A DNA stretch of 64,000 nt from contig OZ316891.1 in NCBI GenBank assembly GCA_973895155.1, positions 14,353,037 to 14,417,036 on the forward strand. The letters are read 5' to 3'. This document shows, piece after piece, positions 34,801 to 64,000 of this stretch. The first letter of the stretch is position 1; every line of letters begins with the position of its first letter. This stretch comes from Marsupella aquatica (lineage: Eukaryota; Plantae; Marchantiophyta). Below the pieces are notes generated by a model, which was given only the letters and a program-made list of their open reading frames with translations, was not told the origin of the DNA and did not search any database. The position numbers were made by a program, and so were the translations under genes.

Positions 34801-36414
34801 GGACTTATTTGTTCTCAACCAACAAGGATTCGAAGTCTCAAACGGCGAATGCATTCTCACCGCTTCACAGTTTTCGTCTTTCCTGTTGGTTCACCATTTG
34901 GAGAGAGCCACTCGATTGTGTATTTATCTGTAGCTTTGTCATAACCCACCACTTCACAACTCTTCCAGGAGGGCCTTCCATCATTTTCATACCGCCTTGT
35001 TCTAGCTTTCAGTCCACGCTCACCCCTCTCATGGGCCTGCTTTCTCAATCAAAAAGATCCCCTGAACTGTCAGTTGTATAAGCTCAAACCAACTCAATTC
35101 ATCGTGGTAAGTGGGGACCAGACACTTTTACAATATGACTATAGAAATATTGTTTACCAACATCAATTCTAAAGCAGTTGATTTGTTGGGACGTCTATCT
35201 GACTTAGTAATATTCCCAGCCAGCATTTGACCCCAAGCGTCCCAGCAGTTTAGCTCTGCCCAACTTGCTCAACCCAAAACTGTATACTACGGTACTAAAC
35301 CAGTCAGAGGCTACCAGGGGTCCTATCACACTCCATAATTCTGACGTACAAAGTAGTAAGTAAGCTCGGTTACAAGCGATGCACCCGGGGGCCCACCAAA
35401 AAGGAAGGATCCCAACATTGAAATTTACAGTACTGTTGTGAGTAGTCTTTGCTGAAACTCACGAGACAATATGAAATCACAGTCTGTCTGCGAGACATGC
35501 AAGCAGTGTTCCTAATTGTTGTATGATTTTCTAAAACTATACTCTTCTTCAAGATGGGGGGAGGAGGACGGGGATCACACTAGCATCTTGAGCCTCAGCT
35601 TGAACCCACCTCACCACTCATCACAAAAAGTTTAGTGTAAAGAAGGAGTGACCGATGGTGTCATTGTGCAACTCTGCGGTAAGAGGGAGGGAGAGAGGAG
35701 ACGACTCACGGCCTGGAGGAGAAGCGAAGGGTGGACAAGATCCATGTCCGGGTTATCGAAGAGCTCGAGAGGGAGCACAAATTTTGTGGGACGCCCTTTG
35801 TTGCCGGGCGCGTCGATGGCCCGAACTTCATCCCTCGTCCCTTCCGCCGGCTGCACGTCTATCTCTGGCTGCCGCATTTGGTCCTCCTCCACATCAATAT
35901 CCTCCAATTTGCACTTCCTCCTTTTCCGCCTCGATGGCGGTGGAAACACTAGCATCTCTACCGGCCTGGGAGGAAACGACCCTGTCTCTCGCGAATCGAA
36001 GTTGTAAATGACGGCCTCCTGTTGTCTGGAATCATCCCGTCCCGTCGAGCTTGCCTCGGAGTCATCGCAGTCCATCTCAAATTCGTCTTCGGGGTGCTCT
36101 GAGCCCTCAGGGGGGCAGCCCCAGAGCAACGTCTCGTCCATCGCTGGAACAAAAATCTGCGGAAATTTCATAACGTAGGGAGGATACACTTTGGCGTCCG
36201 GATCGTACACCGGGCTAAGAGGGCGGTAGCGCACAGAGCCGATGGCGATGGGGCTCGGAGTTCGCACTTCGCACCCCGCCCCCGACCTGGAGTGGGACGT
36301 CCGCAACAAAGTTGGCGTCCGCACTGGGCTCCGTGACAGAGGCCTCTTCATGCCCCTTTTCATAATTCTCCTCGTTGAAGAATGAGGATTACCCCCACTG
36401 TCCTCGTCCGCCAT
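4857..36414 (-). CDS. Axonemal inner-arm (single-headed) dynein heavy chain, DNAH3/7/12-like motor; multi-exon
   Basis: Many collinear minus-strand exons. Linker [14 protein letters not shown]; AAA1 GPAG|[13 protein letters not shown]...CFDEFNRI...[23 protein letters not shown]; AAA2 [25 protein letters not shown]; AAA3 GPTGTG|KT; AAA4 [10 protein letters not shown]; stalk/MTBD; AAA5 [18 protein letters not shown]; AAA6 [18 protein letters not shown]; C-terminus CPLYRT...[17 protein letters not shown] at 36414. Confidence 0.95.
24917..24984. repeat. (AAACT)n microsatellite in a dynein intron
   Basis: About 13 perfect taaac units. Confidence 0.95.
29830..31560 (-). pseudogene. Decayed coding-like insertion inside a ~2 kb dynein intron; identity unknown
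   Basis: Intron much longer than its neighbours. Minus strand gives protein-like runs broken by stops ([17 protein letters not shown]; [47 protein letters not shown]; [29 protein letters not shown]). Confidence 0.3.
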
Positions 36415-36701
36415 CTCGTCCTATTTATCCTGTCTTTTCCTTTCCAATTCCTGTGAATCATCCATCCACCTGACCCCCCATCAGTCCTGCATCCAAAACT
36501 AGTCTAAGAAATCTTCCAGCTTGTCTGAATTACGCATCCATCGATTAACCCAGTGCTGCATTCAATTCAAATTCAGAAGTGTTTCCAATTGTGTCAATTA
36601 CTAGCTTCACACAGAAGAGATTCAAAAACAAAAGTTGAATCCACACGGTAGTCAAAAGCAACAATCAAAATCAGTTCTTAGCTTCGATTGTCACCGGGTC
36701 A

Positions 36702-39547: not shown

Positions 39548-39921
39548 CACTCTTCACCGTAATTAGTGTTATGCAAGAATTAGTGCTAGTATAAAATTAG
39601 TGTTACTAATTTTGGTAAAAATGATTTTGTGCCCAAGTAACACTAATTTTTGTTGGTTTTCAAAACAGATTTTGTTCACTCTAGTATTAATTGCTTGTAA
39701 AAAATGGTTGATTTTTAGTCCAAAGTAACAATAATTATAGTGGATTTTTCAAAGTAGGTGTTTTCTCTCTATTTTGCCACTCTTAAGACCATAGTAACAC
39801 TAATTCATGTGCGCAAAAATAGTGTTAGCACAAATTTAATGTGACTAACATTTATTTGAGAGTAGACCTTGAAAATGGGTGCTCTTTAATTAATGTTAGT
39901 CACAAATTATGGTGAACAATG
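39548..39921. mobile_element. MITE with TA target-site duplication (Tc1/mariner-type)
   Basis: Left TA|CACTCTTCACCGTAATTAGTG; right end reverse complement TA|CATTGTTCACCATAATTTGTG; AT-rich interior with repeated AATTAGTGTTA/TAACACTAATT motifs in both orientations. Confidence 0.75.
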
Positions 39922-43827: not shown

Positions 43828-44142
43828 GAGGAAGACAGGCATTATAACCATGGATCAACTGCTACCAGGACAAATGTGCAGTGCATCCCAAGTGTCTTAT
43901 CCCGGTTGGTCTTCAATCTTCGTGGTATGAACTATGAACCACTTCTGTTCAGAGTTTCCAGATAAGGCTTTTATAGGTGTAGATCAAACTACGTTGACTC
44001 CGGGAGACATTTGGCGACCTGCTAAGCAATATAGTTCACCCGACATCTTTCCATCTTCAATTAGAAGAATCAATGGCACAAACTACAGTAGCCTTGCGCC
44101 GTAAATTCGGAAATTTAAATTGCGCTCCTCAAAGTAGAGCTC

Positions 44143-46440
44143 CTACCAGTGAAGCCAGTGACTAGCTGATTGCATCAAAGGATGTGACACATAAGCACCG
44201 ATAGTGAATCCGACTATCACGTAATAAGGCAACCTAAGGAATTCCTTGTAATAGTCGGGGGGGAGTTTTTGCCTACCCTCCATAATGGCAGCAAATGGAG
44301 TAACACTGGTGCGGTTTTTCACAACTTCAAATGCTTCTCCGTATTTTGCGGATAGCCTTCGATCACCATGCCACACACCGAATAGGTGATGGGCGGTCAA
44401 TCCTAATGAGGTGATGAGAGTGAAGGAGTTCCCGATCCATAGTGTATGTGCAATGCACCAGAGAACCTGCCCTACCATCTGCGACAATGTCCAATTTTTA
44501 AACTAAATTATGACGAGCAGATGCCAAAACAGATCATCTTCAAGAACTTCGCACCAAGCACACGGTGTACGATACATCGGCTCCAGCCAAATTGTCAAGG
44601 ACAAAATTGCCAATAAATTTGTCGCATGTTCTTATTGACTGTCGTCATCAATGATGAGATCCAGAATATGATTAGTAAATACCTGGGGGTGTCGGGTGAT
44701 TCTCATGATCCCTGTCTCCCACATATGTACTTTAGGCTTGTCCACAGCAGCGACTTCGAGTAGGTTGAATGTAGAAGGATAGAGGAATAGAAAAGAGACG
44801 AAGGACAAAGCCCAGCAGAACTCATGCACGCCAGGAATCGTCCGGAATTGCCAAAGTTGGTACCCGTCATAACGGTGATTGATGAAATAAACCTGTCAGC
44901 ATAAGTTCGTTTAACTTCTGAGATATAATTCTCCTTTTTCAATTGAAAGAAATATCTTCCGCAGAAATGAAAACCCCAAGCAAAATATTTCAGGACTCCC
45001 AACTAAGCTAAAACACGAAGAAAGTTCAAATGATAATGATAACTGATCTGGTTTTTATTTGCAGAAGCAGAGCAGAAGAAGCGCCTATCTAAGAGACGAG
45101 CAGACAGACAGAGCAAAGCAAAGCAAAGCAAAGCAAAGCAAAGCAAAGCTCAGCTCAGCTCAGATTCTGGGTTGAGCATAAATACCACAGCAGAGACTGC
45201 GAGAGGAAGCGATGTTCCGGCAAACAAGACTCGATAAGCCCTCTCTCCGATTAGCTTCTCCCCTGTGGCGCGGAAACCTGCCCCGCCACTATGAACCAGA
45301 GCGAAGATGAACAGTATTTCCATCATTACAACCTTCAACCAATCATGATCTCGAGAGTTAGCAAACATGAGCACCACAACCAACCTGTATTGTGAATCTG
45401 TTATCATCGTCCTTTCAAGATCTTGACTCAGTGACTCAATTATCCATCCCACATTGTATTCTCTCTGGTTCGTTCGGATAAATGACAATTTTGATACAAC
45501 GGGACAATCTGTGATACACACCCACCCGTCAGTCATAGTGCGTGTGGAACAAACGAAGCTCGAGTGCCGGCAAAGAAAGGCATGCATCTCTTACTCTCTC
45601 TCACCTCATGGCTGCTGTTGAGCGAGGTCAATGCATTTATAAATGCCCCTCCGTATCCTGTGTTCGGGTCTAACCAAAGTACGTACAGAATCGCCAAGAC
45701 GACACCAAGGACCAGAGTGAAAGAAATCCAGGATGACGTCTGTTGGTCCACGACATTAAAAACAGCAGCATCTTCACCAACTAGACCGTCATTCTCGTCC
45801 TCCGAAACTATCTGTGGCGTATCTCCTACAGCCGCATTCAACCGTCCAGGTGGTGTACCACTGGTCGAAGATGGAGGGAACAGAGAATCTTTCAACTCCG
45901 ACTCAGACTGCAGCTCTGCTCTCCACAGGCCCACTCGCTGTCTCCTGACCGTCCCAGAACTTATGGAGAAAGAGAAAGCATGATTCAAGCCGCCCGTGCT
46001 GGATATCCGAGACCACTGCCGTGCCAATTCATTCAATGGACCAGTCAAATACAGTAGACGTAGGGCGACAATTCTCATGTCCACAGGCAAAAAACACCAT
46101 AGCGAATTCTACTACTAAACGACCGAGATGAGAAGAGAAAATCCCGGGGAAAAAATCCAGTCCAATCCAATCGAAATGATTGCATGGAAGGGCAACAGTA
46201 GTGCTTTGAATTTCTCACTCGTTGTTGTGACGCCAGTCGAGACGATGGCCAAACATTCTGCCACCTCGAGAATGTCGCAAAGGAAGCAGCCCGTGAGAAT
46301 CCAGAACAAGCAGCTCCGCTTTGCTGATTAAACCCATCTCTAGAGCCCTGTGGTTTCTGCTGCTGCTGCTGCTGCTGCTGCAGCCCAACAACGGAAGAAG
46401 ATCGAGCCGGAGGCAGCACGAGAGACGACACAGCGGCCAT
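44143..46440 (-). CDS. Z-ISO: 15-cis-zeta-carotene isomerase (NnrU family), plastid-targeted
   Basis: [19 protein letters not shown]...[62 protein letters not shown]|[17 protein letters not shown]; Ser-rich transit-peptide-like N-terminus with Q8. First intron boundaries uncertain. Confidence 0.93.
45112..45149. repeat. (AGCAA)n microsatellite in a Z-ISO intron
   Basis: agcaa repeated ~7 times. Confidence 0.9.
46357..46380 (-). repeat. (CAG)8 encoding polyQ in the Z-ISO transit peptide
   Basis: ctg x8 on +; [12 protein letters not shown] on -. Confidence 0.9.
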
Positions 46441-47284
46441 AGTTTCGAGCTCGATCGATCACTAAATGAAAACTCTATGCACCGAATCAGTCTCACTGTA
46501 TGACTTTCATCATCCACAAGTTGGTGCGCACACAATTCTCTCTTTGCTCAATGCAAGCACTACTGGGGAGAAGATGACAGACAAGCTTTGGAAAACCTTT
46601 GTGGGTCTTAAGAATGATCTTTCTCACAGAAACTACAGTACCGTCAGAAAATGGCATTATCGATAGAAAGCTTGTGACAATGATTTCCTTAAGAGTACAG
46701 AAGGAACCAGGGAGGAGAAAGGGGTGGGGAGGTTCTCAATCCCATCAATCACGGGTTAACTGAACCCCAATCACTCGGGGGTTTAACTACAATAATAGAT
46801 TGTAGTTTAATTTCAATATGTATGTTCTAATTTTATTTGCAATCTTCTTTATACTTATTTTACATGAATTATTTTAATTTAAGAATTATACATGAGTGTA
46901 TATTGCATTTTTGTTTCTTCTGTTATTCAAGTATTTTACAAATGTCCTTACAATAATAATTACTCAAATGGCTTTACTGATTTTCATAGTTGAGCCCCTG
47001 AGCCCCTGAGCTGTCTTATCACTCATCCATATCAATGAAGTTCAGCAGCCTCATCAAACTCCAACATCATTTTGGGGGTTGGATTTTCCCTCATGGTGAC
47101 CTTACGAAGCTGAAAAGTTTCCACTCAGAAAACCTTCTTGAGACATTTTCTCAACTCAATAGCCCCCCTGAGTCATCTTGACAGCCCCACTGAGCAGGAA
47201 AGTTCTACACACAAATGACTGATACTTGATACATACTACTACTAATGATAACTGATTGAGTTATGACACTCTCTCCTCTGCCTT

Positions 47285-47316: not shown

Positions 47317-48259
47317 TCGAATGATTAGTTTGTTAGAATTCTCATTTGATGTCCTTTGTAATGACCCTGAAGTGGGGCTTCAGGAGTTGAGTGATTATGG
47401 AGAAATCAAGGTCCACAGATCAATTTGTTTGTTGCCATCGGGCATTCACACTAGAGAATCCTACAGAAGTTAGTATTTCAGTAAGGCACTCACATTACAG
47501 TAGAGAATTCTACAATTGATTAGTATTTCATGTGTGGAGGCTTATTTTATGTTCCATTTGTGCTTTAACTTAGGTTGACCCAAGAATCTATAGCCATTAT
47601 GAATCAATCTTGCAAAACATGGTGCAAATATTGTGAGGAGGGACTCTCAATCGACAACAGTGCAAAGTACTGTGCTCGTCAGCCTTTCTTTGGCCCAACT
47701 TGCATGTGGCAGCCCTAAAGAAGCAACCCTTAGCCGTTGGGAAACCCTCGGCAAAAAGCGGATCTAGTCTGTCAACAAGATCTGCTGCCCTGTAATGTCT
47801 GCTTTTGTTTTACTATAAAATCAAAGGTAATTTTTTTGTTTGGTAAAAATTGGCCAATTACTAACCTATTAAACAGGCAGGCTAATGAAACTTTGGCCTA
47901 AAATTTAGAAAATTATGTTTCATTCGCCATCACCTCATGCACTATGGGGGAGTGTTAGCCAAAAAAAATACTCTACAATAGTCAGAAAGTACTATATAAT
48001 TGAAAAAGAATTTTCTCCTAAATTGGGCACAAACAAGAAGGCAGCAGTTATTTTGATCCCAACAAAGACTAGTTGTGTTTGTTGTGCATCTTGATGATGT
48101 GACACGCTGTGGTGCCTGGAATTTTGGAATAAACCTCTAATAGGGGTCCGTAAATAAAATACTCCATAACAAGATTGGTGCTTGTCTAAAGTATAACACA
48201 CTAGCCACCTTGGCTAATGTTTAGAAACAAGATAAAAATGATTGGTTGGAACCAACCAC

Positions 48260-48620
48260 CACTAGAAGAATCCGAGGTGAATTGAGACCGCAATATGTGA
48301 CTCATTTTGGCTCATGTGACTTCATTGTGACTCAACGTGACTTGACCCACGCTGTGACCCTTGGAGTTGCAAAAGTTGAGACCAAAAAATGGAAGTCACT
48401 CTTGATACTCGGCTTTGCAACTTGCTTGATACCCATTTGTGACTGATCTATGACTTTATTGTGGAGTCTAGCCTTGTTTCTACGTGACTGCAATATGACT
48501 TTAACGAGTCACATGGTAAGTCATATACATGACTTGCTCGCATTCAACAACGACTAGTGTGTGACCATTTAGTGTCACAGAAGAGACCAATGGAGACCCT
48601 GGCCCGGGTCACACAATAGA
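48260..48620. repeat. CACTA terminal inverted repeat and subterminal repeat region
   Basis: CACTA start, then many TG(T/A)GAC and GTCAC motifs, some as inverted pairs (gtgaccatttagtgtcac; gagaccctggcccgggtcac). Confidence 0.8.
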
Positions 48621-49114
48621 ACCATTTGGGACTCTATATACTCATGTTTATAACTAATAAGGTTCACATGCAAGTTGTAACCATGACTAATGAACACAGA
48701 GGGACAGTTTATAAGGAGAGAGAGCACTCCACATTACAATACATAGAAACCTGATGTTCTAACTTTAGAAATATAACACATTGAATACAAGAAATGAACA
48801 TAGCATGAATGACATCCACATCAAACAAAGCATCATATAAGCAGATCCTACATAAAATATTCATAAGAATTAAATAGAATCACAATCTTGCTCTAAAATT
48901 TAGATCATTTGAATTCCAATGGAATAGTTTACAATGTGATCAATGTAATTCAGACAAAACAGGAACTCATAATTGATGACTGCAGGATGAGATAACTGAA
49001 AGCACATGCATGATACTATGAATCTCCAAGAGGACATGATTCTTGTACTCCTTCTTGACATCTAAAATCTACATAACATGACTCACACTACAAACAAATA
49101 ATGGCATGACATTG

Positions 49115-52100
49115 TTATGGATCCTCTATGAACTTGCTTGGCCATAATAACAAAGAACCTGTAGCATCTCCAAGTGTCTTTTGAGGAGGATCATCATTTG
49201 TGTTTGGAATGGGATGGACAGCTTTAGGTTTCACTAGTAATGTGACTAACACTACTGAATAACCTGGGGGAATCCTCTTGCCATGGAACGTTGTGGAACC
49301 AACCTGCACTCTGCCAAATCCTACTCGTGTTCCACTCTCATCAACAGCTAACAAGCCACTTTGTCCCTCAGCATTAGGTGCTTTCCCCACTTCCACCTTA
49401 GATCTTTCTGCCAGCACCGTTCTTGGAGGTTTGTATGAAACCTTTGACGTGGCTCTGCTCCCACCAGCAGACTTGCTTCGTGTGCGCATGCTTCCTCTCT
49501 TCATAGTAGTGAAGCTAGGCTCAGTAGGTTCCTCTGTTAGGACTGTCACGGTAGCAGGTTCATCACCTGGGAGTGTCATACCAACTAACTCTTTGGTTGG
49601 TTTTATCTCAACAAGAGGCACACCTGTCATTGAGAATGATACATTCTGCAAATCATTTATCTCAGCAATGGAGTCAAGATCTACATAGCATGAATCTGGC
49701 TCAATGGTATCATTGTCATGCTTGCTGATATCCTCATTTGCCCCAACATTGATATCATCCACTCCCTTGCCAATGTCATCCTCATCCAAACATGGTTGAC
49801 TACCCTCTGTCAAACAAGTTGCTTGTATAGACTGCAACTTTGTTGCCTCTAAATTACAGCGAGTATTTGTCAGGTTCTCATACTTCTTCTCTGCAGCACC
49901 TGCCTTATTCTCTATGGACACAACAACCACAATATATGTTACTGAAAATAACACATTTAACAAACAATGTCAATTCAAACTATACATTTACTAATCATAT
50001 CCCACACAGTTGTAAAGGCCTTACCTTCAAGCCTACATGTCGTTGGCATGCCAGAAGAGTGCATCAACTTTGCCACCTCAAGTGGTGATGGTGGAACTCC
50101 TGCAGAATTGGAATCAATTTTATCTCTCACCGACACAACAGCTTCCATTAATGTCTTGAAGTTCACATGGAACAAGTCAGTCAATGAATTCAAACATTCA
50201 TTGATCTCTAGAAGACATGTTTCGACAGCCTTCAAACGACCACTTATCTCTGTAAGTGAAGATCCACCTCCCTACATGACACAGGGGTATAGGTTCAATC
50301 ACTCCATATGAAATGTTGGGCAATATATGCACAATCAATGTTATATACAGTGTACACCTGAAATTCAACGCAGGTCATTCAATTACCAATCAAAACTCAT
50401 ATAACTTACATGCTTGGAGGATTCAGATGCACCCTCTTGAGCCCGGGTGTTCACAATTTCAGCCCTCAACTCTTCTTTTGAAGGGCTTTGCCCCAATTGG
50501 GCTTTCTGCACATGCATGGCAAACACAAGTTATCATTATTATTCAGGGAACGTACACTAAAAAACAAAGTTTACATGTATGGGTTTACACTATAAACAGT
50601 ACATAGTGTAGCATAAATTACATAGCTAGGCCATTGATTCTTACCAAACGTTTTGCTGTCGGTGCAGTGCCGGTCCTTCCTGTCAGATTAGGGTTCTGAA
50701 CACTCAACCTGGCCTCGGTCATCTATGAACTCTTCTTTTTTGAAGCATCTGTTACAAAATAAGCTACTAACCTTGCCCACACTTTATCATCACAACTGGC
50801 TGGTGGAGGCATATCTGGCTTCTCCCCACCTTCCTTCCAAGCCTTATGCATTCTCCACCTCTCTTGCTTTATGATTTTACCTACTGTACTCTCTAGGTAA
50901 CCTATGTCCATGCCATCATCACTGCCCACATAATTCCATTTGGCAGCAACATTTTCACATACAGTCTTCCAATCTTTTGGATGCTGTTTTTTAAAATTAA
51001 TAACACTCACATCTAACCAACGCAATACTTCAGCTTTCAAATCAGCATGCCATCGGTTCTTACGAGGACACTCAGCATCCACCCATTGTCTCTCATTCAA
51101 CTTTACGTTCCCTTTCTTTGTGACCTCCCCTCGTGCACTGCTCTCGGTAGTACTGGGCGTTGTATTGGCCACCCCTTCATTCACCCTACCTGGGGTTCTG
51201 AAGCCACCTGGGAAAATACAATGCCATTCATTCTTGAGAACTACATACAGCATAATGGATGACGGCAACATTCAATGCTTCACTTCAAGAAAAATTCTTC
51301 AAACATACATACTTGTAGCTCTGTGGAAAGGAGACTTTTGCTGAAACACGACCATAAGAGAAAAATCTGAATCGTTTCAAACTTTTTGAGCAAAAACGAC
51401 GCTTTCTGAAGCGTCTACTTTCCATTTGGCGGTTAACTCACTTCAGTCTAACTAAGGACGCTTTCTGAAGCGTCCCTAGTTACAAAGCCAATAAACCCCA
51501 AGACAGCTGAGGCGTCCATGTGTGCTGCCAACCAGATGCGACCCCCTTAACCACGACGCTTTTTGAGCCGTCCTTCACCGATACCACGGAACAGAAGACG
51601 CTTCCTGAAACGTCTATTCGAACCAGACACCGGACGCTTTAAGACGCTTTCTGAAGCGTCCGCTAACCCCAAAGTCCGATGAGACGCTTTCTGAAGCGTC
51701 CACATGAGAAGTGACGCCTTGACTGTTCGGCCGTGTTCGAAGACAAAGCAGAATCGATGCTTTCTGAAGCGTCCGCCAAGACAGACTCCGCCGCTTTCTG
51801 AAGCGTCCCACCTGAAGGCCGGAAGACGGATGCCGCGACCAAAACACCAAAATCCAATCGACGCTTTCTGAAGCGTCCACTATCTTCCCGACACTTAGAA
51901 ATATTTCTGATTTCCGCACTTTTATAACACTGCACCACTTTTGCCAATTTATTTGAGGCACTTAGAAGTCTCAGAAAAGTCTGAAACTTTACCAGCATAG
52001 AGATTATATGTAGTAGAGTACTCTAGAAAAGTCTCAGCTCATTCCGAGTTTTAGTTTAGAAGTTAAAATTAAATTAAAACCACTGTTTATTAGTTTTACC

Positions 52101-54496
52101 GGAAAACACCGACGCTCTACAAAGCGTCCACTAAGTCTCCAATGCATTTCTTTATTTCTTTTAGGATTGTCTTTTAGATATTTGAGGTTTGAAAAGTCAT
52201 GCCTTTTCAGTTAAGGGAACCTTTACTTATAAAACCTCATGGTTTATCCTTACCAAGGGGGGGACAATTCCAATCAGACTTCTGTTAGTTTCCCTCCTTC
52301 CATTTTAACAAGAGAAGTCTTGTATCGAAGTAAAACTTATGTTTGAATTTATGAATTCAAGAAATTTCTTGATACTTGAATTCAGTTACAAACTTCTGTG
52401 ACTTACATTGAATTCACTGCTAGGCTTGCTTGAAGGGTCAAGATTCGCTAGCTAATTCAAGAGTTGTTGTTTGATATGTGAGAAGTAAAGTTTGGTTCTC
52501 AGAGTATTCAGTACCGTTACTTTGTTTATGGAATATGATTTAGTGTTTGACGGAATTGCGTATCGCTGATGTCAAACCATGTTGCCGGCATCTTAAGTCA
52601 TATCATTACATTTGTAACCAGAGCAGTACTTGCTTAGCAAATTGGAAATTCCTTATCATGCAATTTTATTTAGTCAGGAGAGAAATTAGTGAGTTATGAG
52701 ACTTGTTTTATGTCTATTCTAAGACCATAGTCCTTTTTGAAGGAGTGGCAATAGCTAATCAGAGTTTTCAGACCATAATTGACTCTCTCTTGACTCATAA
52801 GAGAGAAGTTTATTTACTTTGGTGTTTTGTTTATTTGATCTTTTAGTGAGAAACAAGAAATCTATGTACTAAGAGCTTTAGATTACTCAAAGAGATAAAT
52901 TCATTCAATTCTTTCCAAATCTGTTCTTAAAGGGATCGAATTCCAAGTCTTTATGTAAAAAGTGTTCCTTTTTGTTCTTCTGGCTATACGACAAGCTCTG
53001 CCTGTAGATGCCTGTGCAGGGACTGCACTCTGGAATTGTTGTGACCCTGGACCACCTGTCCAGCCTAGTACAGGGGCTGGATGATGTCACTTTCTAGGTA
53101 TGTGGCTGCAAACATATGTACTAAAAACGTAGTACAAACTATAGGAAAACATATGAACATTCACCAACATACCTGGCCCCCTTCCGTGCTACATCTGCAT
53201 AGGGGCATTAGTGAATACTTGAGTTGATGGTTCGACTATCCAACCTGCACACATACATTTTCTATTATTATACATGTGCATAATCCCCCCCACATCAATG
53301 GACTCCACATATAATGAGTTCTTCCATTGCTGACAAGATCAGACATTACCTGCCCCTCTTCCAGCATTTGTAGGTACTGTATTTTGAAATCCTTGCTAAT
53401 TACCTTCACCACCTTCCCAACCTTGTTCATTCCACGACCCACCACCATCCTCCCAACCTGGTTCAATCCATGTCTGTCCTTGTGGACATTGGAACTGATC
53501 ATTACCAGCATTTGCCCAATCAGGTTGGGCAGAATCTGCATGCAATGGCAGGTGGACAGAATTTCATGTTGTCTGAATCCAATACATCCCAAACAATGTC
53601 AAAAATTGATATGCAGTCTGAAATTCAGGATTGCCATCACAAATAACTGGCATATAGATATATACTCACATCCCCATGGTTGAGGTGGACGTCCATACCC
53701 ACGAGACTGTGGGTTTGGACCTGCTCTGCCTCTACCACGGGCATAACCTAGAGCTTGCCCCCTGCCATAGTATTGGGCACCAGCCTGGGATCTACCACTA
53801 CTACCACCTCGCCAACCTTGATCAGAGGTCAGCCCCCCCTGCTGGTATGGTGCATGCATAGGCTTTGCAGGCAAAACAGAACTGGCAGGACGCTGCATCA
53901 CATCACCAACTACAATGTCAGAAACTAAGCAAGGTACATAGGATGTAAAACTGAACATATGAAACCTCTCAACAAGAGTTTTTAACTCTAAACCTAGCTT
54001 GTTGGGAAAACTACTTACCTGTTTCTTTTGGGGCTGCTCTGCAATGTATTCATCTTCATAACCCCCATCCTCATCCATTTCCTCTGGGAAATACTCATCA
54101 TCTGCATCTTCTTGTCTAGTGTCTGCACCCACTTGTGCAGCATCCATGTCATCTCCACATTCTGCCATTGTAGGTACGACCTTCTTGCTCAACCTGTCAC
54201 TCCGACGCACGGGCCCAGAGATAGTGCTGGTCACCCTTCTTGCGTACTCCTTTTGTTTCTTTGAAAAACCTGCTGCTCTACGACATTCCAACATGAGAAT
54301 ACAGTCACAATTTCAGTGCCACATTGAACTATTCATGTCACACAAACTCAGCGGAGGGGTGTAGTTGAGAATCGTTCCCTTACAATTCAGCCACATCCTT
54401 TTCCAGATCCAGTTCTGCAATTTTGACTTTCACGTATGCTTGTTGTTCCATAGCTTTCCTTTCATACTCACACATCTCTGTGTCACTCTGTTCCAT
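49115..54496 (-). pseudogene. CACTA ORF2 / TnpA-like multi-exon gene with premature stops
   Basis: Begins MEQSDTEMCEYERKAME...RRSDRL, then a Gly/Trp-rich region. Exon ~51208-50645 (WARLVAYF...KKKSS*MTEARLSVQNPNLTGR) resembles Ptta/En/Spm Transposase_24. Last exon FHGKRIPPGYSVVLV...HPIP...TLGDATGSLLLWP resembles the Tnp1/En/Spm C-terminal domain. In-frame TAG at ~53397 and ~50724. Confidence 0.75.
51398..52128. repeat. Interspersed array of 18-bp palindrome GACGCTTTCTGAAGCGTC
   Basis: Perfect copies at 51398, 51457, 51643, 51683, 51860; variants at 51555, 51597, 51756, 51790, 52111; degenerate copy ~51502; non-repeating intervening sequence. Confidence 0.95.
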
Positions 54497-54648
54497 CCTA
54501 CTGGACCACAAAAACATGTCATCTATGGTCACCCCGTATAACACAATGCAACCACAATCACCAGGCATCCATCCATACATCTGTGTTGCTTCAGAATTAC
54601 TTTATTACACATCCCCTCACTAATGTCCATGCAAACAATTCACATTAC

Positions 54649-57600
54649 TCATGGCACAGGCACACTGTTGGCATCTGCATCTCTGAATTCGCCTCCTTCA
54701 GCAAATGCATCTACCCTTGTCACAAGAATGAAGTCCCCGCTATCATGAACTATAGGCACTTGGTCTGAACGCCGACGATCAAAGGCACTATGAGAGTGTA
54801 AATGAAACTCAAGGTTTGATCCTTCCATCCGACGTTGCCTGGCCTGTTTATGACACACTACACGCCAACCTGGGAAGTCTTCCACATCCAGGAAAAAAAC
54901 TTGCTCCACCTGACTGGGAAACACAAATGGCTCAGATCATTCTGGCAATTTCCCTCTTAAATTGGCCAGCAAGAAACCGTCGTTGTCTCTCTTCATGGTA
55001 GCCCTATTACCAAGCCAATCATGCCGCACCCATGAACCTTTCATAAGAATCATAGGACTGGACACCGCCCCATAATCCAGAGCCCATATGTCAACTAATT
55101 CTCCCACATATCCCATCTCCATCCAAGCCTTATCGTGATTGTGGCTCTGTTGCTCAAATACAGTGATGAGCCCACAGTCATTTGTCACCCTGTAGGCACT
55201 GTCACCATCCTTCACTCGAAAGTGATTCCCATATGCTCTCATCCATTTGTAAGTCTTCACTTTCAGGCTAGGGGCATTAGACAGTAGGTAAACGTCTGCA
55301 TCCATGTCTGGGTGGGTCTCGTGATGCTCTCTAATTGCCACTCTAATCCACTCCATGAAACCTGGAAAAGTTGTTCCTGCAGTGGGATGGGTCGCCTTGA
55401 ATGACTCATACTCCCTGAATAAACAACCACACAGCATTAGCTTGGGTAAATATGAACAGGCTGAAGGAGAAAATCACACGCACACAACATTTAAGCTCAT
55501 GAACTGGATTATAGCACATGTATGCACTCAGTGTATCCAGGGTTCCATCACCACAGTGTTGTGCAATACAAAGTCATGTGCCAAGTCTCTCATAGATGTG
55601 GTCAGGTTCTTTGTGGTTGCAGCCTCTTCCAGTACTTCACCTATCACCCCTTCCTCCTCATCAGAATTCCACACCCTGGTCTTCACATGCTCATATTGTG
55701 CTATGTATTTGGTCAGAAATCCCAGAGTCTCATCCTTGATGTAACCTTTAGCCATGCTTGCTTCAAGTTTGTAATATGTTCTCACGTGACCTTTGAGTAG
55801 CTTCATGTACCGTTCCAAAGGGTACAACCAACGAGCACTCACAGGCCCAAATTGGTGTAGCTCTTCCACAACATGGACAAGTAGATGGGTCATGACATCA
55901 AAAAATGCGGGAGGAAAATAAATCTCCAGGTCACACAGCACCTGAGCGACATCTTCTGTCAGTTGTGGGAAGTGTGTTTCATCCCAAACCTTCACACAAA
56001 TACGACGAAACACAACACTAAGTTGCATGATCACATTACGAATAGGCTTCTACAACAGGCCCCTCAGACATAAAGGCAACACCTGTTGCATCAACATATG
56101 GTAGTCATGGCTTTTCATACTACCAAGCTTTCTAGTCATGATATGCTTCTTGAAAGCACTGCCATAGTTTGAAGGAACCTTCAAAGAACTCAACCTCTGC
56201 ACAAATAGTTGCCACTCTGTGTTTGTCAGAACATAGGGCGCTTGGTACTTCAAGAGCACATCAGCTCTGTGGGCATGTGGCCTCAACCAAAGATGGGGTT
56301 TCATTCCCCTCTGTTCAAGATCCAATCTCACTGAACCAGTGTCTTTCTCTCCACACAAGAATCTGAGTAGACTCTCACAAATATTCTTCTCAATGTGCAT
56401 AACATCAATGTTATGTTTGCTTGGCTCAAACTCCTGCACCGTTGCAATGCAAAAGCGTCAGCAAATACCTCAAGTTTAGTCTCTCTCTTCGAAATGAATG
56501 CACATGCTCTGAACCAAAATATGTATCCCAATTAGCATCAACTCCAAGAGGCTTACCCTCCAATACTTGAGCTCCAAGTCCAATATGCTCAGTCTTTTTA
56601 CACCATATCGCTTTATTGGATCACTCACTCCATCTTCCCTGCCCCCTCGTTTGATGTAGTCATCCCTCAGTGCTCCCCACTGCCTGATCTCCTCTTTGGT
56701 CACTCGTGCCGGGGGTCCACGTTGCTCAATCTCATTGCCAAAGCTCGGGGGGTTGACTATCAAAAATCTTAGGAACCACGTGCGATCCAAAATAGGTGAT
56801 TTTCATAGAGATTAATTACAATTTTAAAAAGCGTAGGAAGCAAAGGAAGGTATTATAAACCCATATTTGTAGAATATTCTCTAATATATACCTTTTATAA
56901 AATAATATAGATCATTAATATTAAGAATAGAGAGTATTTTTGGAATATTCCCGTTATAAAATAGGCGTGTTTATATTAGGCTAGGATTGCACGTGGTACC
57001 CCAAAATATATACTAAGTTAACTCCCTGAGTGCCAAAGTGTGCAATTAGTGCTTGTCTTTCTCTGTAAGGGTGATCTGCCTTCAAAAAATGACGATGGCC
57101 CATGTATATCACTTTCTGCAGGGCTCTGGAGTACTCACTGGTGACATTGCGCCCACAGATAGTACAAGCACAATATCCTTTTGTTGTTTGGCCTGATATC
57201 ATCCCATGGGCTGGGTAGTCAGCTATAGTCAGAATGATGATGGCTCTAAGGATGAATGGGTTTAACCTCCCAAGCCTCTGTAGGACATCATATGTGAGGA
57301 CTCCTTCCTCCCAAAGCTTGCTCAATTCCTCCACTAGGGGAGCCAAAAACACATCTATGTTGGCAGATACAACACTGTCTGGCCCTGGTATCAGTAGGAC
57401 CATCAGAACAAAAAATTGCTTTGTAGTCATCCAAGGAGGAAGGTTATAATTCAAAATAGTTACAGGCCAACACAAAAATTTGTTGTTCTTGTCTCCAAAT
57501 GGGTTTACCCCATCCAATGACAGCCCAAGTCTGACATTCCTCGGCTCAGCAGCAAATTTGGGATACATTTCATCTATGAGTTTCCATTGCCTTGAATCTG

Positions 57601-58700
57601 CGGCATGTCGTTGTAGCCCATCATCACTTTTCTTGTCAGTTGCCCAAGTCATCATCTCCGAGATGGCACGGCTTCTGAACATCCGCTGAAGTCTGGGAAT
57701 GAGTGGAAAATGACGAAGTACCTTGGCGGGAACCATAGACTTTCCTGAGTTCCGATACCTGTGCTTCCCACACTTAGGGCATGTCAACGATTCTGCATAC
57801 TCCTTTCTGAAAAGAACATGCCCATCAGGACAGGCATGGATCGAATCATAGTTCAATCCAAGATTAGATATGCATCTTTTTGCCTCGTACATGTTCTTGG
57901 GCAAAATATTACCATCTGGTAGCACAGTTGTTCGCAAGAATGCCAACAACTCAGAAACCAAAACATTGGGGACATTGTGGTTGCCGCAAATATTCAGGAA
58001 CATGATGACAAATCCCAGTTTAGAACATTTGCTACCGAGGTACAAAGACTTCCTGCCTTCCTGTATTTGCAGGGGAGAGCCAAACATCCCATCATGCCCA
58101 GGGGTTTCCTGCCCTATCTCAAACTCATCAAGAGGCTCTTCGATAGGGGGCACACTTGCATCTGCAGCCGTATCCTCTTCGTTGTCCAGCCCATCATGAA
58201 ATGCATCCAAGTCTTGGAAGATGTCTCTCACCATCTCTTCCACATGAATTCCTTCGTCATGTGGTGTTGCCTGAGCACCATCCCGTTGGAGAGCTGACAA
58301 CCCACAGAGACCAGCTACAACATTTTCAAAGGCAGAACCTCACTTGCCCGTCTTGCAGCATTGGCAGCATCAAATTCTAACCTCCACTCCTCGTCGGAAG
58401 AATCTTCCTCTGTAGGATCATTCCAAACTCGATGTTGTGGATCTCTTCCATGAACCGCGATATGCCGCCAAACCTCATTCAGACCCCTGGTACGGGATCC
58501 TTGGTAGATTGCACAAGGACATCTCATCCTACTGGCTCCTGAAAGTCTGGTTTGTAACCTTTCACGCTGCCAAAGCTTATTATCATGGCGTGATATCCTT
58601 GCACGGGATGATGCAAAGGCAATGCCTGTGCCCTGGGCTGGGTCTGGGGAGGGTGGTGACCAGGGTGCATTGTAACAGGTTGGGAGCTCTACAGTCATGG
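54649..58700 (-). pseudogene. CACTA TnpD transposase (Transpos_assoc, Transposase_21, DUF4218, DUF4216), disrupted
   Basis: MRCPCAI...RHIAVHG; IHACPDGHVLF; KVLRHFPLIPRLQRMF; EPRNVRLGLSLDGVNPF; NYNLPPW; DYPAHG; YMGHRHFL; IDVMHIEKNICES; MKSHDYH; FPPAFFDVMTHLLVH; WLYPLERYM; EPFVFPSQVEQVFF. MITE insertion plus in-frame stops at ~56051, ~55529, ~54938. Confidence 0.93.
56744..57030. mobile_element. 287-bp MITE with 8-bp TSD nested in TnpD (hAT- or Mutator-like)
   Basis: TSD TGCCAAAG at 56736-56743 and 57031-57038. Imperfect ~45-bp TIRs: CTCGGGGGGTTGACT...CCACGTGCGATCC vs reverse complement CTCAGGGAGTTAACT...CCACGTGCAATCC. Removing it restores the reading IAHFGNEIEQ. Confidence 0.9.
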
Positions 58701-58999
58701 ACAGCAGTGAACAAGGATGCCTAATGGTGGTATTTGTGTTCCATATATCCCTGACTGTATCTGCCAAAAGAGTTAACATAACGTGTACTAAATTCTCACA
58801 AACCCTAAACCACCCCAAAAGAAAAAAACAGGTTCGCGAGTAGTGTACCTATTGTCAAGTGAATGACACAAAATTCCTAAATGTTGGAGGGTGTCACCAC
58901 CTCCTCCGCTGTCCTCAAATGTACCGCCTCTGCATGTACACCCATTACCATATCAGAGTCCAATCATGTATAGTCACAGGCACACGTGTGAGAGCGGTA

Positions 59000-59440
59000 T
59001 CACATATCTCACCTTATTACCAGGTGAGATATGGGTACCAACCCTGTTCTCGATGCCACTCAGACCTCAGGTACTCAGGCATGTACATTAAATCATCAAG
59101 GTCTAAACCCTGCTCATGCCATGGGGTCTTGCATCCATGCCTACAAGCAGTGGATGCAATGCCCTCCACTGGGGGCAAGTTGCTACCAAGTCCCTCCACC
59201 GTGTATTAATTTGTCTATATTTGCAGATATCTTGTGCACAGGACACCACAAGAACCCTCGGCCATACATGTGAAAGAACTATATCATCTGCCAAATCAGA
59301 CAACAAGGAACCACCTACAACATCGGGCTTGTCTAACTCATCTGCTGAAAAGTAGATGTCCACTTTGGACTGTGCATCCTCATTCACGATAGATTCAACG
59401 TCTCTTGCATCCTCAGGCGGTGCCAAGAAATGTTTTAGCA
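59000..59440 (-). pseudogene. F-box-domain protein (TE-associated), C-terminal part decayed
   Basis: SLLSDLADDIVLSHVWPRVLVVSCAQDICKYRQINTRWRDLV fits the F-box consensus L..LP.DI...I...L....L.....V.K.W..L. Confidence 0.65.
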
Positions 59441-59740
59441 CCAACCCATGCAGGAGAGTCCTAACTGTGGCCAGCCATATGGCAACCCGAAGGAGGAGCT
59501 GTAATAGCGCTTGTTGATCTAGGAAAGGCAACATACCCACCAAAGTCTGTCGCCTAGATTTGAGCCCACCCAGTACGTTTACAGTGACATCCCAAGGCAG
59601 CAGGAAACAATAATCCGCCAACATTAAAATAAGCCCAACTGCCACCAACCATAACAAGGTACATTAGTTCAAAGATCACATTTATTTCAATGATCTTATT
59701 TATACAAAAAAACTTGTGTCCAAACTGATGCTACTACTCC

Positions 59741-60617
59741 TCACTCTGATTCAGAATCGCTAATGACCCATTCCTCACTTGTTGTCTCATAGTCCTCTCT
59801 GTAAGGATCCTGACCCTTCCGTGGCCAGGCCTCAAAAAGATCATAGTCCATTGGGTTTTGACGCTTCCCAGCTGCTTCTGATTCCACAAGCCAAGCATAT
59901 GAAACCACAAACACATTATGGGACATGACATAAAAGTGAATGTCTCCCTTCCCAAACTTGCGGCAGGCTTTGGGATATGACTTAGTAATGACATGAGTGG
60001 TGTCCTCTGTTATATTCTCCTCCACTGTCCCACCTAGGTCAAGCACTGTGGACTTGTACACTTTGCACTTAACCTCTCCAATTCCCGCCTCCATAAATAC
60101 CATGCTCAGCCCTTTCAGAATGGGGGTTGGTTGCTTCGTCTCCTCAACCAACATACTCTTCAGCCTTGTAGAGCTCTGTCCTTTGTTGAGTACAGGTCCA
60201 TATTGGAGATCAGCAAGCCGTGCCTTTGCTTCCCAGACTTCTTGTTCAGCCCAAGCTGATGTAGTAGCTTCTTCATCCTCCCACAACTCATATTGCTTAG
60301 TATCCTATACAATCTTATGTGCTATGGAATCTGTGATCCAAGGCCTCAACTACTTTTAGGCCTTGCTTAGTAATTGCAGAATTCATGTAGGACCATGACC
60401 ACTTCTTTATCACTAATAGCCATGTCCCTGTAACAACATGTGTAGTCTCTGGAGTGATGTCCTGAACGACAATGCCATGGAGCTCAAAGAATCGTTTCTG
60501 TACAGTTGGCCAATGTACTTTGGTCAACCCATGCTGGCCATGGACCAAAATCGCTCTGACCCCTGTAAACTCTGATGGGTGGTCACACTTTCTACGTTTC
60601 CCAGGCTCCATGTACAC
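59741..60617 (-). pseudogene. Tandem BRCT-domain protein (Pol lambda/TdT-type BRCT), one frameshift and one stop
   Basis: BRCT1: FTGVRAILV...HGIVVQDITPETTHVV..., frameshift ~60346, PWITDSIAHKIV*DTKQYEL. BRCT2: LKGLSMVFMEAG...LGGTVEENITEDTTHVIT...KFGK...VVSYAWLVESEAAGKRQNPMDYDL. Confidence 0.8.
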
Positions 60618-61203
60618 ACACCCTACGTGATGACAGTGAATTTTGGAAGAATGGGTTCACTTGACAATACAAGGACAACAAAATTCCTACTTTTTGAGTT
60701 GATCTGGCCCACTAGTGCTCAGGTCCGATTTTGATAGGTACAAGGGATATGTGAACAATACGTACTAGGCACTTGCACGTATGCAGGATATTGTTTGAAT
60801 ATATACTACAAAATCCATATCGAAGGTGAAATGAAGTGCAACCAACTTGTCATGGCACATACATATTTTGTTGTAAAGGAGGATACATTCAATGACAAAC
60901 TTATAGGGCAATTTGATTAATTGCATGCTTGATAATTTATACGCTTACAACTTAGAAGTCCTATTTTAATTTAGCAGTCTGATGAAAATGTTTATGAAAA
61001 TGACCACTCAGCCTAAATACTTCCAAGAAGGCTTGTAAGGATAAGTTTTTATAGGCATGTACCCAGCCACTGACGCCAGAGCACAAGATAAGTGCTGCCT
61101 ATATAAACTCGCCTACCCAACTCCTTTTCAAAATTGGAATCTCTACAATCTCAAAAAATAGTACATCCACATCAGGTGCACTGTGCATGTACAATGTTTA
61201 GCT

Positions 61204-61887
61204 TCACAGCCAAGATATGTGATCTCTCACAGGAGTGCGCAAGGTAGGATCAAGGGCATGGCGATGACAATAAAATATCCATCGATCAACACCATGTGCA
61301 GAGTGATCATAGATTTCTCTGTCACAAGCATAACCCTCTGCTTGACGATCTTTCAGGCAATGATAGTGCCACGTGGGACACCGAGCACAGTGGACTATGT
61401 CAGTCCAGTAGTCATCATCATGCTCACCACATGCCTTGCACCTATGAAGTGGGCAAGCTGTGGCATGAGCAGGCAAACACTCAAAATAGAAAAATCTCAC
61501 ACAAAAACGGTCTGGACATTTCCTAACATTTGCTGCAGCATCAACAGAGCCCTCATAGGACCCCAACTTCCCACACTGTGCATACTTAGCCTGCTTCTCC
61601 AAACAATCAGTGCACATCCAGTCTCCCTGGTGTGTTGACGGGAGGCCCACCCCTGGACAGTTGTTTTCTGCAGCAAGGTCAGACTCCGGGTTGAGGTGGA
61701 AATGCCTCATGCAAGGGCCCTCACAAATGACCAGGCCCCCACCATCGTCACAAATGGCACAACAATGAGCTACCTTCTGGAAAATCTGACTTGCAGAGAA
61801 GTTAGTAGCATCTGCCCCAAGTACACCTGTGTTTCTCACCTCTGTCACACGCTTTTTGGCTTGAATTTTAGCTAGGTCGTGCCATGC
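61204..61887 (-). CDS. EDM2-like triple PHD-finger module (last exon of a TE-associated gene; upstream exon appears decayed)
   Basis: CAICDDGGGLVICEGPCMRHFH...WMCTDC...CGKLGS...CPLHRCKAC...CARCP...IFYCHRHALDPTLRTPVRDHI parallels Arabidopsis EDM2 as recalled (CAICDNGG..CEGSCLRSFH, CPLHKC, TPVRDH). Splice acceptor at 61889/61888. Confidence 0.8.
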   Translation of the reverse strand, partial: AWHDLAKIQAKKRVTEVRNTGVLGADATNFSASQIFQKVAHCCAICDDGGGLVICEGPCMRHFHLNPESDLAAENNCPGVGLPSTHQGDWMCTDCLEKQAKYAQCGKLGSYEGSVDAAANVRKCPDRFCVRFFYFECLPAHATACPLHRCKACGEHDDDYWTDIVHCARCPTWHYHCLKDRQAEGYACDREIYDHSAHGVDRWIFYCHRHALDPTLRTPVRDHISWL

Positions 61888-61896
61888 CTGCGCATG

Positions 61897-62040
61897 AGAT
61901 AGACTCTACAATTTAGCAGACTGCGCAGAAAGTAAAATATATTTAGCATTTAAGGTACAAAGGCATTTAGATAGACTCTACAATTTAGCAGACTGCACAG
62001 AAAGTAAAATATATTTAGCATTTAAGGTACAAAGGCATTT
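61897..62040. repeat. 72-bp tandem duplication in the intron before the PHD exon
   Basis: agatagactctacaatttagcagactgc(g/a)cagaaag...aggcattt twice (61897-61968, 61969-62040), 1 mismatch. Confidence 0.95.
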
Positions 62041-62654
62041 GCTACTGCAATGAATTGGAATGGCCACACAAGGATGCAGAGCACACATACTTTTGGTATG
62101 TTGAGCCCACACACAAAACTGATCCCCTAATACAATTTCTCCACCAACACCTCAATTTTAATTGTGGCTATGATTCACCAAAGGAGATCTGCAACAACAT
62201 TTCATGCATTTGAATCACATACAATAGTCGTGACATGTAAAACAGGCATTCTTCGAAGAGGATTGGTATGAAGCAGTGTCATAAGGGTTGAAATTTATAC
62301 ATCCTAAATAGGCTATGATAGTGGCTGAGACAAATAAGTGAGGCATAAATCACATTTTGCAGGTTATCACATGGCCCATTAATTCATTCAACGTGGCAAT
62401 GTTCACCAGGTTAAAGCAATATTAAAGCAGTCTTTCAATAGAGACTTTTAAGCGAGTTTGCTAGCCTCCTAAATTAGGATATTTTGCTTAGTGCAGGCAT
62501 AATAGGATAAGTTATGTACTGTTGACCCTAAACCCTGGACCCAAAATTGCTTATACATCAAAATTTTAAGTAAATATCCTCTGTGTTGAAGGCAGAGTGT
62601 TAAGCTATAGGTCAATGGTATCTGGTCTATGCATGTGGTGTGACAAGTGGTCCT

Positions 62655-63104
62655 CTAGAGCATGTGATCCAAACATGTGTAGACACCAAAGCCACCAGTG
62701 GTGGGGTCTGGGAGGGCAGGACAAGTGACATCACCAGGCACACTGCAGGATGGCGAGTGGTTCCAGATGATACATTGTGCTCTGTGCAAAAATCGGCATC
62801 CAAGAGAACGGTCATCCAATTTTGGGCCAGAAGCCCTACAGGTAGGACAGTTATATTGGCAACTATGCACACACCCTTGGCACCTAATTTGTGGCGGGTC
62901 ATGTACAAGAGACACAAATACCAAGGATGTCGGGAAGGGTACTGAAGCAGGTAGAGGCCGGCTATAGTTGTTCCTGGAAACAACAGGGTACTCAAAGTAC
63001 CATGCAGACTGGGCTGGAAGGATCCCAAGTCTGACATACTCAAGGTACAACATCTCTGCCTTGCATGCAAGCCGCACATGTTCAGCGTTGCGGGTCCTCA
63101 CCAT
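62655..63104 (-). CDS. Cys-rich hypothetical protein, 149 aa (TE-associated)
   Basis: ATG-initiated ORF with CQGCVHSCQYNCPTC...CRFLHRAQC; co-oriented with the other genes; no family recognised. Confidence 0.45.
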   Translation of the reverse strand: MVRTRNAEHVRLACKAEMLYLEYVRLGILPAQSAWYFEYPVVSRNNYSRPLPASVPFPTSLVFVSLVHDPPQIRCQGCVHSCQYNCPTCRASGPKLDDRSLGCRFLHRAQCIIWNHSPSCSVPGDVTCPALPDPTTGGFGVYTCLDHML

Positions 63105-63405
63105 AAGTGTTGCTTTCGTTGTGACGTCCTCTATTCACGTCCTTTGATGAGCAAGGCGAGCAGGAGGTTGACTTGCCTCACCAACAACAACCAACCTAAA
63201 CTAATCAGTTCCCACTCACTGTCTTGGTTCCAACTACAGGTCATAGTATACACATAGCATGAAACGTGCATAGTACATATTTGATTCTGAGTTTATGAGT
63301 TTCCTAAGACAAAGAGCTTGGTGATAAACCCATGTTCTCAACGGACATGTATATCAATCATATTAAAATCCTATTTTTTCATCCAGAAAGACCGAAAGTC
63401 TCACC

Positions 63406-64000
63406 TTGCAGGTTGCAGCAGAGAGAAAATTCATTGGCTATCGTGTTGTGCAAGTGAACCTCCACTGATGCCCCCGGTGTAGCCCCTCAGATGCAGGTGA
63501 CACTTAGCAACTCCCAAGTTGCCTGGTCTAACAGAAAATGCTTATATCTTCAGAATTTTATAGAGCAAGTACATGATCACATGGCATTGGCCCTACCAAA
63601 CTGTACGTTCACCTGATTGAATGGAGAAGCATTGCTCATTGGGGTGAATACACTAGCAGTACTCGATGGCCCAGTTGAAGGCAAAAGAGACTACAATATT
63701 TAGAAAGAGTCAACTCTACACTTGGTTCATACAATACTTCTGGAACTATTCATATTTGGCCTTATGGAACTCTTGCCAACTACAACTCCTACTATGCACA
63801 AGCTCACATCAACAGAGAAAGGATACAGAATGCATACTTACTATGGCTCTAAGCACCTTCACTACCTTGTTGAACCCAGTCCTGAAGTCTTTTCAGCACG
63901 TTTGCTGTGCTGTCTCCTTTGGCACCAAACACCTTAGTCCTTGATGTAACAGAATGCGATTTTACAAGTTAGATGCTTTGGAACCTTCTATGGTCTTAGC
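63406..64000 (-). pseudogene. Decayed multi-exon gene of unknown function
   Basis: Splice-flanked segments read AFNWAIEYC*CIHPNEQCFSIQS|DQATWELLSVTCI*GATPGHQWRFTCTTR*PMNFLSAATCK|, with TAG/TGA stops compatible with C>T changes. Confidence 0.35.

Follow-up and report, generated by a model that had tools for sequence, protein, structure and literature searches.

Among the closest described counterparts of the locus examined here is Spm of Arabidopsis, whose TnpA is reported to be a sequence-specific anti-silencer that demethylates its cognate termini via ROS1/DML (10.64898/2026.08.24.746577). Host-derived accessory domains of transposable elements are also in print (PMC13547354). Enlarged relatives include the En/Spm elements of Chondrus, with 16-20 kb and 4-5 open reading frames (ORFs) (PMC6431247), fungal EnSpm/Plavaka elements with TET/JBP (PMC12730594), and CACTAs with Peptidase_C48 (PMC8978399). 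On the host side, the H3K9me2-binding protein EDM2 influences more than 2,000 transposable elements in Arabidopsis (PMC7529245, PMC3632883). The present analysis concerns a 64,000-nt stretch of Marsupella aquatica (assembly GCA_973895155.1, contig OZ316891.1, positions 14,353,037 to 14,417,036), referred to as the window, in which a CACTA element starts at position 48260 and a series of further genes lies upstream of its transposase gene, TnpD.

The window element resembles En/Spm, including Arabidopsis Spm1 and Spm3, in its CACTA end, subterminal repeats, TnpD and head-to-tail second gene (10.64898/2026.08.24.746577; PMC13547354). Unlike Spm, it has four or five further upstream genes, and the terms 'PHD', 'BRCT' and 'F-box' do not occur in the available text of those two papers. 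Moreover, its CpG-protected motifs are arrayed in an intron, and in Spm it is the termini on which TnpA acts (10.64898/2026.08.24.746577). Extra ORFs inside the element, some of them proposed to be counter-silencing, are shared with the enlarged CACTAs, but the cargo differs: PHD, BRCT and histone mimics are not mentioned for those elements in the available parts of the reports (PMC6431247, PMC12730594, PMC8978399). The locus is read here as a decayed copy of a high-copy CACTA family of at least 15.7 kb, in which the ORFs upstream of TnpD are likely element-borne and likely counter-silencing. The probability of this reading is put at about 0.52.

Element architecture and copy number

The element begins with CACTAG at 48260, directly after a CAC (48257..48259) that represents a candidate 3-bp target-site duplication (TSD), the other side of which lies beyond the window. 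With respect to the direction of the genes, all of which are on the minus strand, the CACTA terminal inverted repeat (TIR) at 48260..48272 on the plus strand forms the 3' end of the element. Subterminal repeats GTGAC(T/C) follow in either orientation at 48296..48690, and GTGAC occurs 12 times in 48260-48709, whereas 450 nt of the window hold 0.9 on average. The decayed TnpD gene at 54649..58848 (minus strand) matches Transposase_21 (E 6.5e-66) and DUF4218 (E 5e-28), with weak matches to Transpos_assoc and DUF4216. One terminus with subterminal repeats together with this TnpD places the element in the CACTA/EnSpm group, and both the CACTA end preceded by CAC and the TnpD gene described in an earlier note on this DNA are confirmed. 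So is the C>T-type decay, since the observed/expected CpG ratio (CpG o/e) is 0.24-0.36 in every element segment except a palindrome array. Upstream of TnpD, an F-box-like, a tandem-BRCT, an EDM2-type triple-PHD and a Cys-rich ORF follow in this order, and then a possible decayed gene.

Contigs of six sequencing runs, out of 11 listed, were placed on the window. Two of these runs, X1 and X2, represent two organisms, and their host flank contigs show only 0-1 differences from the window, indicating that the lineage of the organism is present in both. Depth rises from about 100 to 50,000 in the bin holding the 48260 end. The median depth, a sum over contigs that is no copy number and cannot rank genes, was 126,000 in X1 over 58.7-64 kb, 118,000 over TnpD and 93 over the flank; the values in X2 were 52,000, 54,000 and 55. 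The ratio of block to TnpD was 1.07 in X1 and 0.98 in X2, and even the lowest accessory bin stood 356-fold (X1) and 505-fold (X2) above the single-copy flank. This contrast indicates a high-copy repeat that is unbroken from the CACTA end to the end of the window, and the depth makes it likely that the block is included between the TIRs. A restriction of the 59-64 kb ORFs to this one copy, an objection that the earlier note had itself raised, is contradicted by their high depth in both runs.

Equal depth is also compatible with an adjacent high-copy element, and the 59-64 kb block might be a different element or repeat that abuts the CACTA or is nested in it. Several observations lean in that direction and reduce the confidence in a single large element. 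Neither the second TIR nor the other side of the TSD is seen within the window, which ends at 64,000. Among the six runs, no contig spans the 48.3-64 kb stretch and none leads from TnpD to the PHD gene, and scans of metagenome, viral and genome contig collections revealed no linkage of the homologues to a transposase. In run X7, at 80% identity, the PHD gene is present at high depth without the BRCT ORF (depth at most 33) or the Cys-rich ORF (at most 15); the gene set is therefore not fixed. On the other side, block and TnpD have matching depth in two species, all genes share one strand and a like CpG depletion, and the gene junctions of the block are bridged by short contigs. In addition, the 5' end of TnpD continues into the block without a TIR or a subterminal cluster, and no second cluster of subterminal motifs was found between TnpD and 64,000. 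A separate element is accordingly considered unlikely.

Element pieces 96-99% identical to the window were also observed at low depth (2-20, many of them single 151-nt reads) in runs X5, X7, X8 and X9, in which host exons are about 83% identical to the window. Cross-contamination from the high-copy repeat would explain these pieces, so they were not taken as evidence of horizontal transfer, although a transfer may also have given rise to them.

The mini-EDM2 family

The intronless gene at 61204..61885 (minus strand, about 226 codons) encodes a triple-PHD protein that is called mini-EDM2 here. A profile search of 1.84 billion representatives returned 264 matches. The seven matches with E<1e-30 are all of 166-245 aa, and the stand-alone set is followed by long proteins, including named EDM2s and proteins of Marchantia and Riccia, which bears out the EDM2-type assignment of the earlier note. 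Two stand-alone homologues, P0001 and P0002, are 81% and 73% identical to the window protein. Proteins of this set have 220-245 aa and are 38-79% identical among six full-length, non-redundant members, most of which end at the same motif. The PHD cysteines are kept at 17-20 of 20 positions in the homologues, compared to 34-79% identity at other sites.

The protein shares with Arabidopsis EDM2 a triple PHD cluster of NSD type and the motif at which this cluster ends (PMC7529245, PMC3632883). Unlike EDM2, which has about 1,300 aa, mini-EDM2 has about 225 aa, no DNMT1-RFD, no long C-terminal part, a shorter linker between the second and third PHD and a His>Cys change; furthermore, it is repeat-borne, has a histone H3-like N-terminal tail, and falls in a separate clade instead of the host EDM2 clade. 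Its identity to 25 host-type sequences, liverworts included, is only 29-35%, though a closer donor may still lie in the genome of the source host itself. A tree without outgroup was built from 38 sequences (13 stand-alone and 25 host-type) picked among the 150 matches listed. The stand-alone and host-type sequences were split on a long branch (FastTree 1.0, ultrafast bootstrap 100), and forcing the window protein together with either liverwort host clade was rejected by the approximately unbiased test (p 1e-6 and 1.5e-4). The separate, deep clade argues against a recent neutral capture. When the tree is midpoint-rooted, the stand-alone clade has as its nearest host group a second clade of shorter EDM2-like proteins (P0013, P0015 and P0021, of 692-768 aa), with the PHD cluster near the C-terminus; P0015 is from Riccia sorocarpa.

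A diverged PHD gene reaches a depth of 1,240-3,160 in X7, where the TnpD core stands at 1,520 and host exons at 28-42. Together with the clade, this indicates an old family that is repeat-borne in at least the lineage of the window and one other species. In the window copy, 4 nt are inserted near 61869, and Cys has changed to Tyr at two sites (61487 and 61583). Both positions read Cys at all run depth in other copies, and the insertion, which lies at the PHD start, is missing from 24-63% of the depth. The 34 variants listed for the ORFs mostly reflect decay of the window copy itself. A 72-bp tandem duplication just upstream of the start codon (61897..62040) is skipped in one contig.

The heterochromatin reader proposed in the earlier note stands as far as the EDM2-type PHD cluster is concerned, but at 29-35% identity the reading of H3K9me2 is not transferable from EDM2. 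In AIRE PHD1, acidic residues that precede the first Cys contact H3K4. The first PHD of mini-EDM2 is without these residues, which makes its ligand less predictable.

A histone H3-like N-terminal tail

The segment at 61852..61885 (minus strand) encodes a motif of the mini-EDM2 family, A-R-x-K-x-x-A-[KR]-K, that resembles residues 1-9 of histone H3. Under a relaxed rule, applied to 22 stand-alone-type proteins, 16 of them with a scorable upstream segment, nine proteins reached at least 5/6 as against 0.08 in shuffles, and none of 123 host-type segments did so. A strict rule was built from two H3 motifs quoted in PMC6028506, leaving out four proteins without an N-terminus and one near-duplicate. 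At least 4/8 was reached by 12 of the 17 proteins (1.7 expected), a result not matched in any of 1500 shuffles; only 1 of 1500 permuted rules scored as high, and among 111 long host proteins, 7 attained at least 4. The positions retained are R2 (14/17), K4 (16/17), K/R8 (14/17), A7 (9/17) and K9 (9/17). The motif directly follows the start Met in 4 of the 17 proteins and in those copies of the window family that are free of the insertion. Thus, a conserved H3-like linear motif is found in an exposed terminal segment, and it is absent from host EDM2. A search with the N-terminal 22 residues of P0007 gave no match in PDB, histone H3 included.

As in the histone mimics of G9a/GLP and influenza NS1, a short H3-tail-like motif occurs in a non-histone protein (PMC6028506). 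In contrast to these, the motif of the window belongs to a plant transposon; it is N-terminal, spans both the K4 and the K9 positions and is joined to a PHD cluster, the likeness being one of sequence. Some features weaken the case for mimicry: T3 is poorly kept (2/17) and K9 is present in little more than half of the proteins, the rule was chosen after the sequences had been seen, the proteins are related to one another, and the pattern could stem in part from a basic signal for nuclear import.

Other accessory genes and the origin of the cargo

The tandem-BRCT gene (59741..60611, minus strand) is intronless, with about 290 codons. Its second repeat matches Pfam at E 4.9e-8 and its first at 0.039, and the ORF is colinear with the intact 295-aa protein P0003 at 51-54% identity, in agreement with the earlier note. 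At 60307, where the window copy has a stop, other copies have a sense codon in all three runs that cover the position, and the frameshift near 60340 is missing from about 70% of the depth in X1 and X2. A profile of the family gave generic matches to Rtt107, BRCA1 and TopBP1/Rad4 in PDB; the predicted protein structure has low confidence (AlphaFold pLDDT 34.8). A likeness to the BRCT of plant DNA polymerase lambda had been considered as well, but the profile search in PDB gave no support for it.

The Cys-rich ORF (62655..63104, minus strand) is intact, with 149 codons, and likewise represents a family: two stand-alone homologues, P0166 and P0167 (150 and 200 aa), are 55-58% identical to it. No match was found in Pfam or the Atlas, and its predicted fold (pLDDT 53.5) matched no known structure (best Z 4.6, best E 1.9). 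The protein starts with a short basic stretch, and P0166 scores 4/8 on the H3 rule, which is a weak resemblance.

Two further predictions of the earlier note are weak. The F-box-like ORF (59017..59663, minus strand, with a frameshift near 59124) has a motif-like core at 59160-59318. However, its Pfam score of 13.3 bits (E 0.082) is below the cut-off of 20.5, no PDB match was found, and a joint 58935-59573 in four runs, with short sides of 20-26 letters, indicates that some copies skip the segment (58936-59572). The proposed adaptor of a Skp1-Cullin-F-box (SCF) complex is therefore weak, and the dispensable segment also detracts from the idea of an integrated gene set. At 63405..64000 (minus strand), a possible multi-exon gene, cut by the window end, consists of three in-phase exons, but it is heavily decayed, with 4 stops in 120 codons, and has no match in Pfam.

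Captured gene fragments have been described in CACTAs (PMC8978399, PMC13317346), and the cargo could, as in Pack-CACTA elements, consist of randomly captured host fragments that are passively amplified and decay neutrally. The decayed state of the window copy and the dispensability of the F-box segment are in keeping with such an origin. A close host donor and a lack of coding constraint would be its signs, and the sequences of the PHD, BRCT and Cys-rich ORFs suggest neither. The PHD protein is distant from all host-type sequences compared and forms its own clade, the H3-like tail is missing in host EDM2, and the ORFs are intronless, have their own start and stop, and are shared with homologues at 40-80% identity. 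As judged from these comparisons, the three ORFs appear to be conserved stand-alone families, unlike the neutrally evolving fragments that the earlier note had named as the opposite case. Passive cargo is quite improbable as an account of the whole block, although the F-box-like ORF and the 63.4-64 kb gene may yet have this origin.

The TnpA-like gene and its intronic palindrome array

Downstream of TnpD, eight exons with GT/AG ends and one GC donor were joined into a gene model at 49115..54168 (minus strand). Exons 1-7, which extend across a 1.8-kb intron, form a single frame that is interrupted by three premature stops; the acceptor of exon 8 must sit 3 nt further in than modelled. The product is laid out as an acidic start, a G/W-rich region, a helical domain and a C-terminal beta-rich domain. 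The spliced gene lies where TnpA would be expected, but the protein has no match in Pfam or PDB; the label follows position, architecture and likeness, and a TnpA-like identity is plausible. A TnpA-type protein would be expected to show Transposase_23/24, tandem HTH units and a C-terminal barrel. The G/W-rich, low-complexity exons (53002..53909, minus strand) hold 6 GW/WG motifs in 191 residues. The segment that the earlier note described is thus present, but compared to the 3.2 motifs expected from composition the enrichment is marginal (p about 0.05), so the region is a weak candidate for an Argonaute (AGO) hook and adds little to the counter-silencing case. CACTA proteins are not named in the main text of an Arabidopsis WG/GW screen (PMC2910046). 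Between TnpD and this gene, at 54383-54601 (minus strand), a 73-codon frame with a coiled-coil-like end was observed, for which no Pfam match was found.

The palindrome array recognized in the earlier note was recovered within the 1.8-kb intron. Ten imperfect palindromes, GACGCTT-N4-AAGCGTC, lie in a CpG island at 51398..52128, where 0.09 are expected; none of 100 shuffles reached ten. The CpG o/e of the array is 1.22 compared to 0.32 for the element, it is still 1.00 once the motifs are masked, and the maximum among 277 other element windows is 0.64. Within the motifs, 19 of 20 CpGs are retained. In the run contigs, depth over the array is about ten-fold lower and go-back joints are present, indicating that the array varies among copies.

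Such an island is in keeping with a protein-bound site that has long been shielded from methylation, by analogy with VANC targets (PMC5735166, PMC10398659); an internal promoter or a recently gained segment would also fit. As in VANDAL elements with VANC, a short motif is arrayed in an internal non-coding region of a multi-gene DNA transposon and varies among copies (PMC5735166, PMC10398659). Unlike in VANDAL, the transposase is of CACTA and not MuDR type, the motif is palindromic, and hypomethylation is read from CpG content. No Pfam match to a VANC family was found in 20 ORFs, the far end of the element lying beyond the window. The comparison with VANC made in the earlier note therefore holds for a CpG-rich, copy-variable intronic array, but an anti-silencing role would follow by analogy.

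Possible roles of the accessory genes

In the counter-silencing reading, the palindromes would be bound by a dimeric protein that the element itself encodes, the TnpA-like protein being the most likely one. In active lineages this binding would hold the intron in an unmethylated state, comparable to what VANC and Spm TnpA achieve at their targets. Mini-EDM2, a PHD cluster without the rest of EDM2, might act on the H3K9me/EDM2 pathway as a decoy or an adaptor. Writers or readers of H3K9 and H3K4 would be attracted by its H3-like tail, and on heterochromatin its PHD cluster would be a competitor of host EDM2. Where the element is excised or inserted, the BRCT pair would recruit repair factors by binding them, and the F-box-like gene and the G/W region would be optional, weak extras.

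The same accessory genes could instead serve transposition, with the PHD protein steering insertion, the BRCT protein recruiting end-joining or gap repair, and the array acting as a transpososome or internal-promoter site. Conservation and depth fit this equally well. The PDB matches of the BRCT domains point to DNA repair, a host gene starts only about 1.8 kb from the window copy, which is upstream of it, the CpG richness of the array fits a promoter, and separately transcribed TnpA-like genes have been reported in Arabidopsis (10.64898/2026.08.24.746577). However, the H3-like tail is easier to understand as a decoy than as a targeting device, and the array varies among copies like the target arrays of VANC (PMC5735166). 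A service to transposition is held to be rather unlikely, yet it deserves more weight than a separate element or passive cargo.

A bolder form of the counter-silencing reading, which is tentative and somewhat doubtful, extends to CACTAs of non-seed plants in general. These would long have carried a dedicated histone mimic, in which the H3(1-9)-like tail is joined to a PHD cluster derived from EDM2. The mimic would titrate the H3K9me/EDM2 machinery or redirect it, within a modular counter-silencing and repair-hijacking kit keyed to a family-specific unmethylated palindrome array. If true, a plant DNA transposon would practise histone mimicry in the style of viruses.

Neighbouring features of the window

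The CACTA end lies upstream of the start of a host gene at 44000-46460 (minus strand), which has a transit-peptide-like start and a weak NnrU match and is presumably Z-ISO-like. A multi-exon dynein heavy chain gene (5900-32300, minus strand) matches Dynein_AAA_lid, AAA_6 and Dynein_C. Dynein was lost in flowering plants, and a dynein gene points to a plant with flagellated sperm, outside the seed plants. At 35632-36420 (minus strand), a 262-codon acidic, proline-rich ORF without a Pfam match lies in a relatively CpG-rich stretch and is possibly another mobile-element gene. An AT-rich patch at 39560-39905 contains short direct and inverted AGTAACACTAAT-like repeats and is possibly a remnant of a miniature inverted-repeat transposable element (MITE). 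Rfam gave a single sub-threshold match in the window, which was taken as chance.

Novelty and significance

The earlier note had regarded a CACTA anti-silencing system as undescribed. This part no longer applies, since anti-silencing by Spm TnpA is now in print (10.64898/2026.08.24.746577). In the literature searched, no CACTA with PHD, BRCT or histone-mimic genes and no paper combining CACTA, PHD finger and BRCT were found, although Repbase entries or supplementary tables could hold the family. A multi-gene CACTA with chromatin-directed accessory genes is apparently a real, undescribed variant. The H3-like tail of mini-EDM2 and the CpG island over the palindrome array are new beyond the earlier note.

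It is still debated how transposons keep amplifying in plant genomes with heavy methylation, and few effectors (VANC, TnpA and MURA) are known. The small, intronless and conserved genes of this element are testable candidates aimed at the histone layer and at repair, outside the flowering plants. Since intact natural homologues exist, each accessory can be assayed alone. TnpA-like proteins have been stated to be restricted to flowering plants (10.64898/2026.08.24.746577; PMC13547354), whereas the host of the window element has an axonemal-type dynein. If the second gene is indeed TnpA-like, TnpA would extend beyond flowering plants, against the statements of these two 2026 papers.

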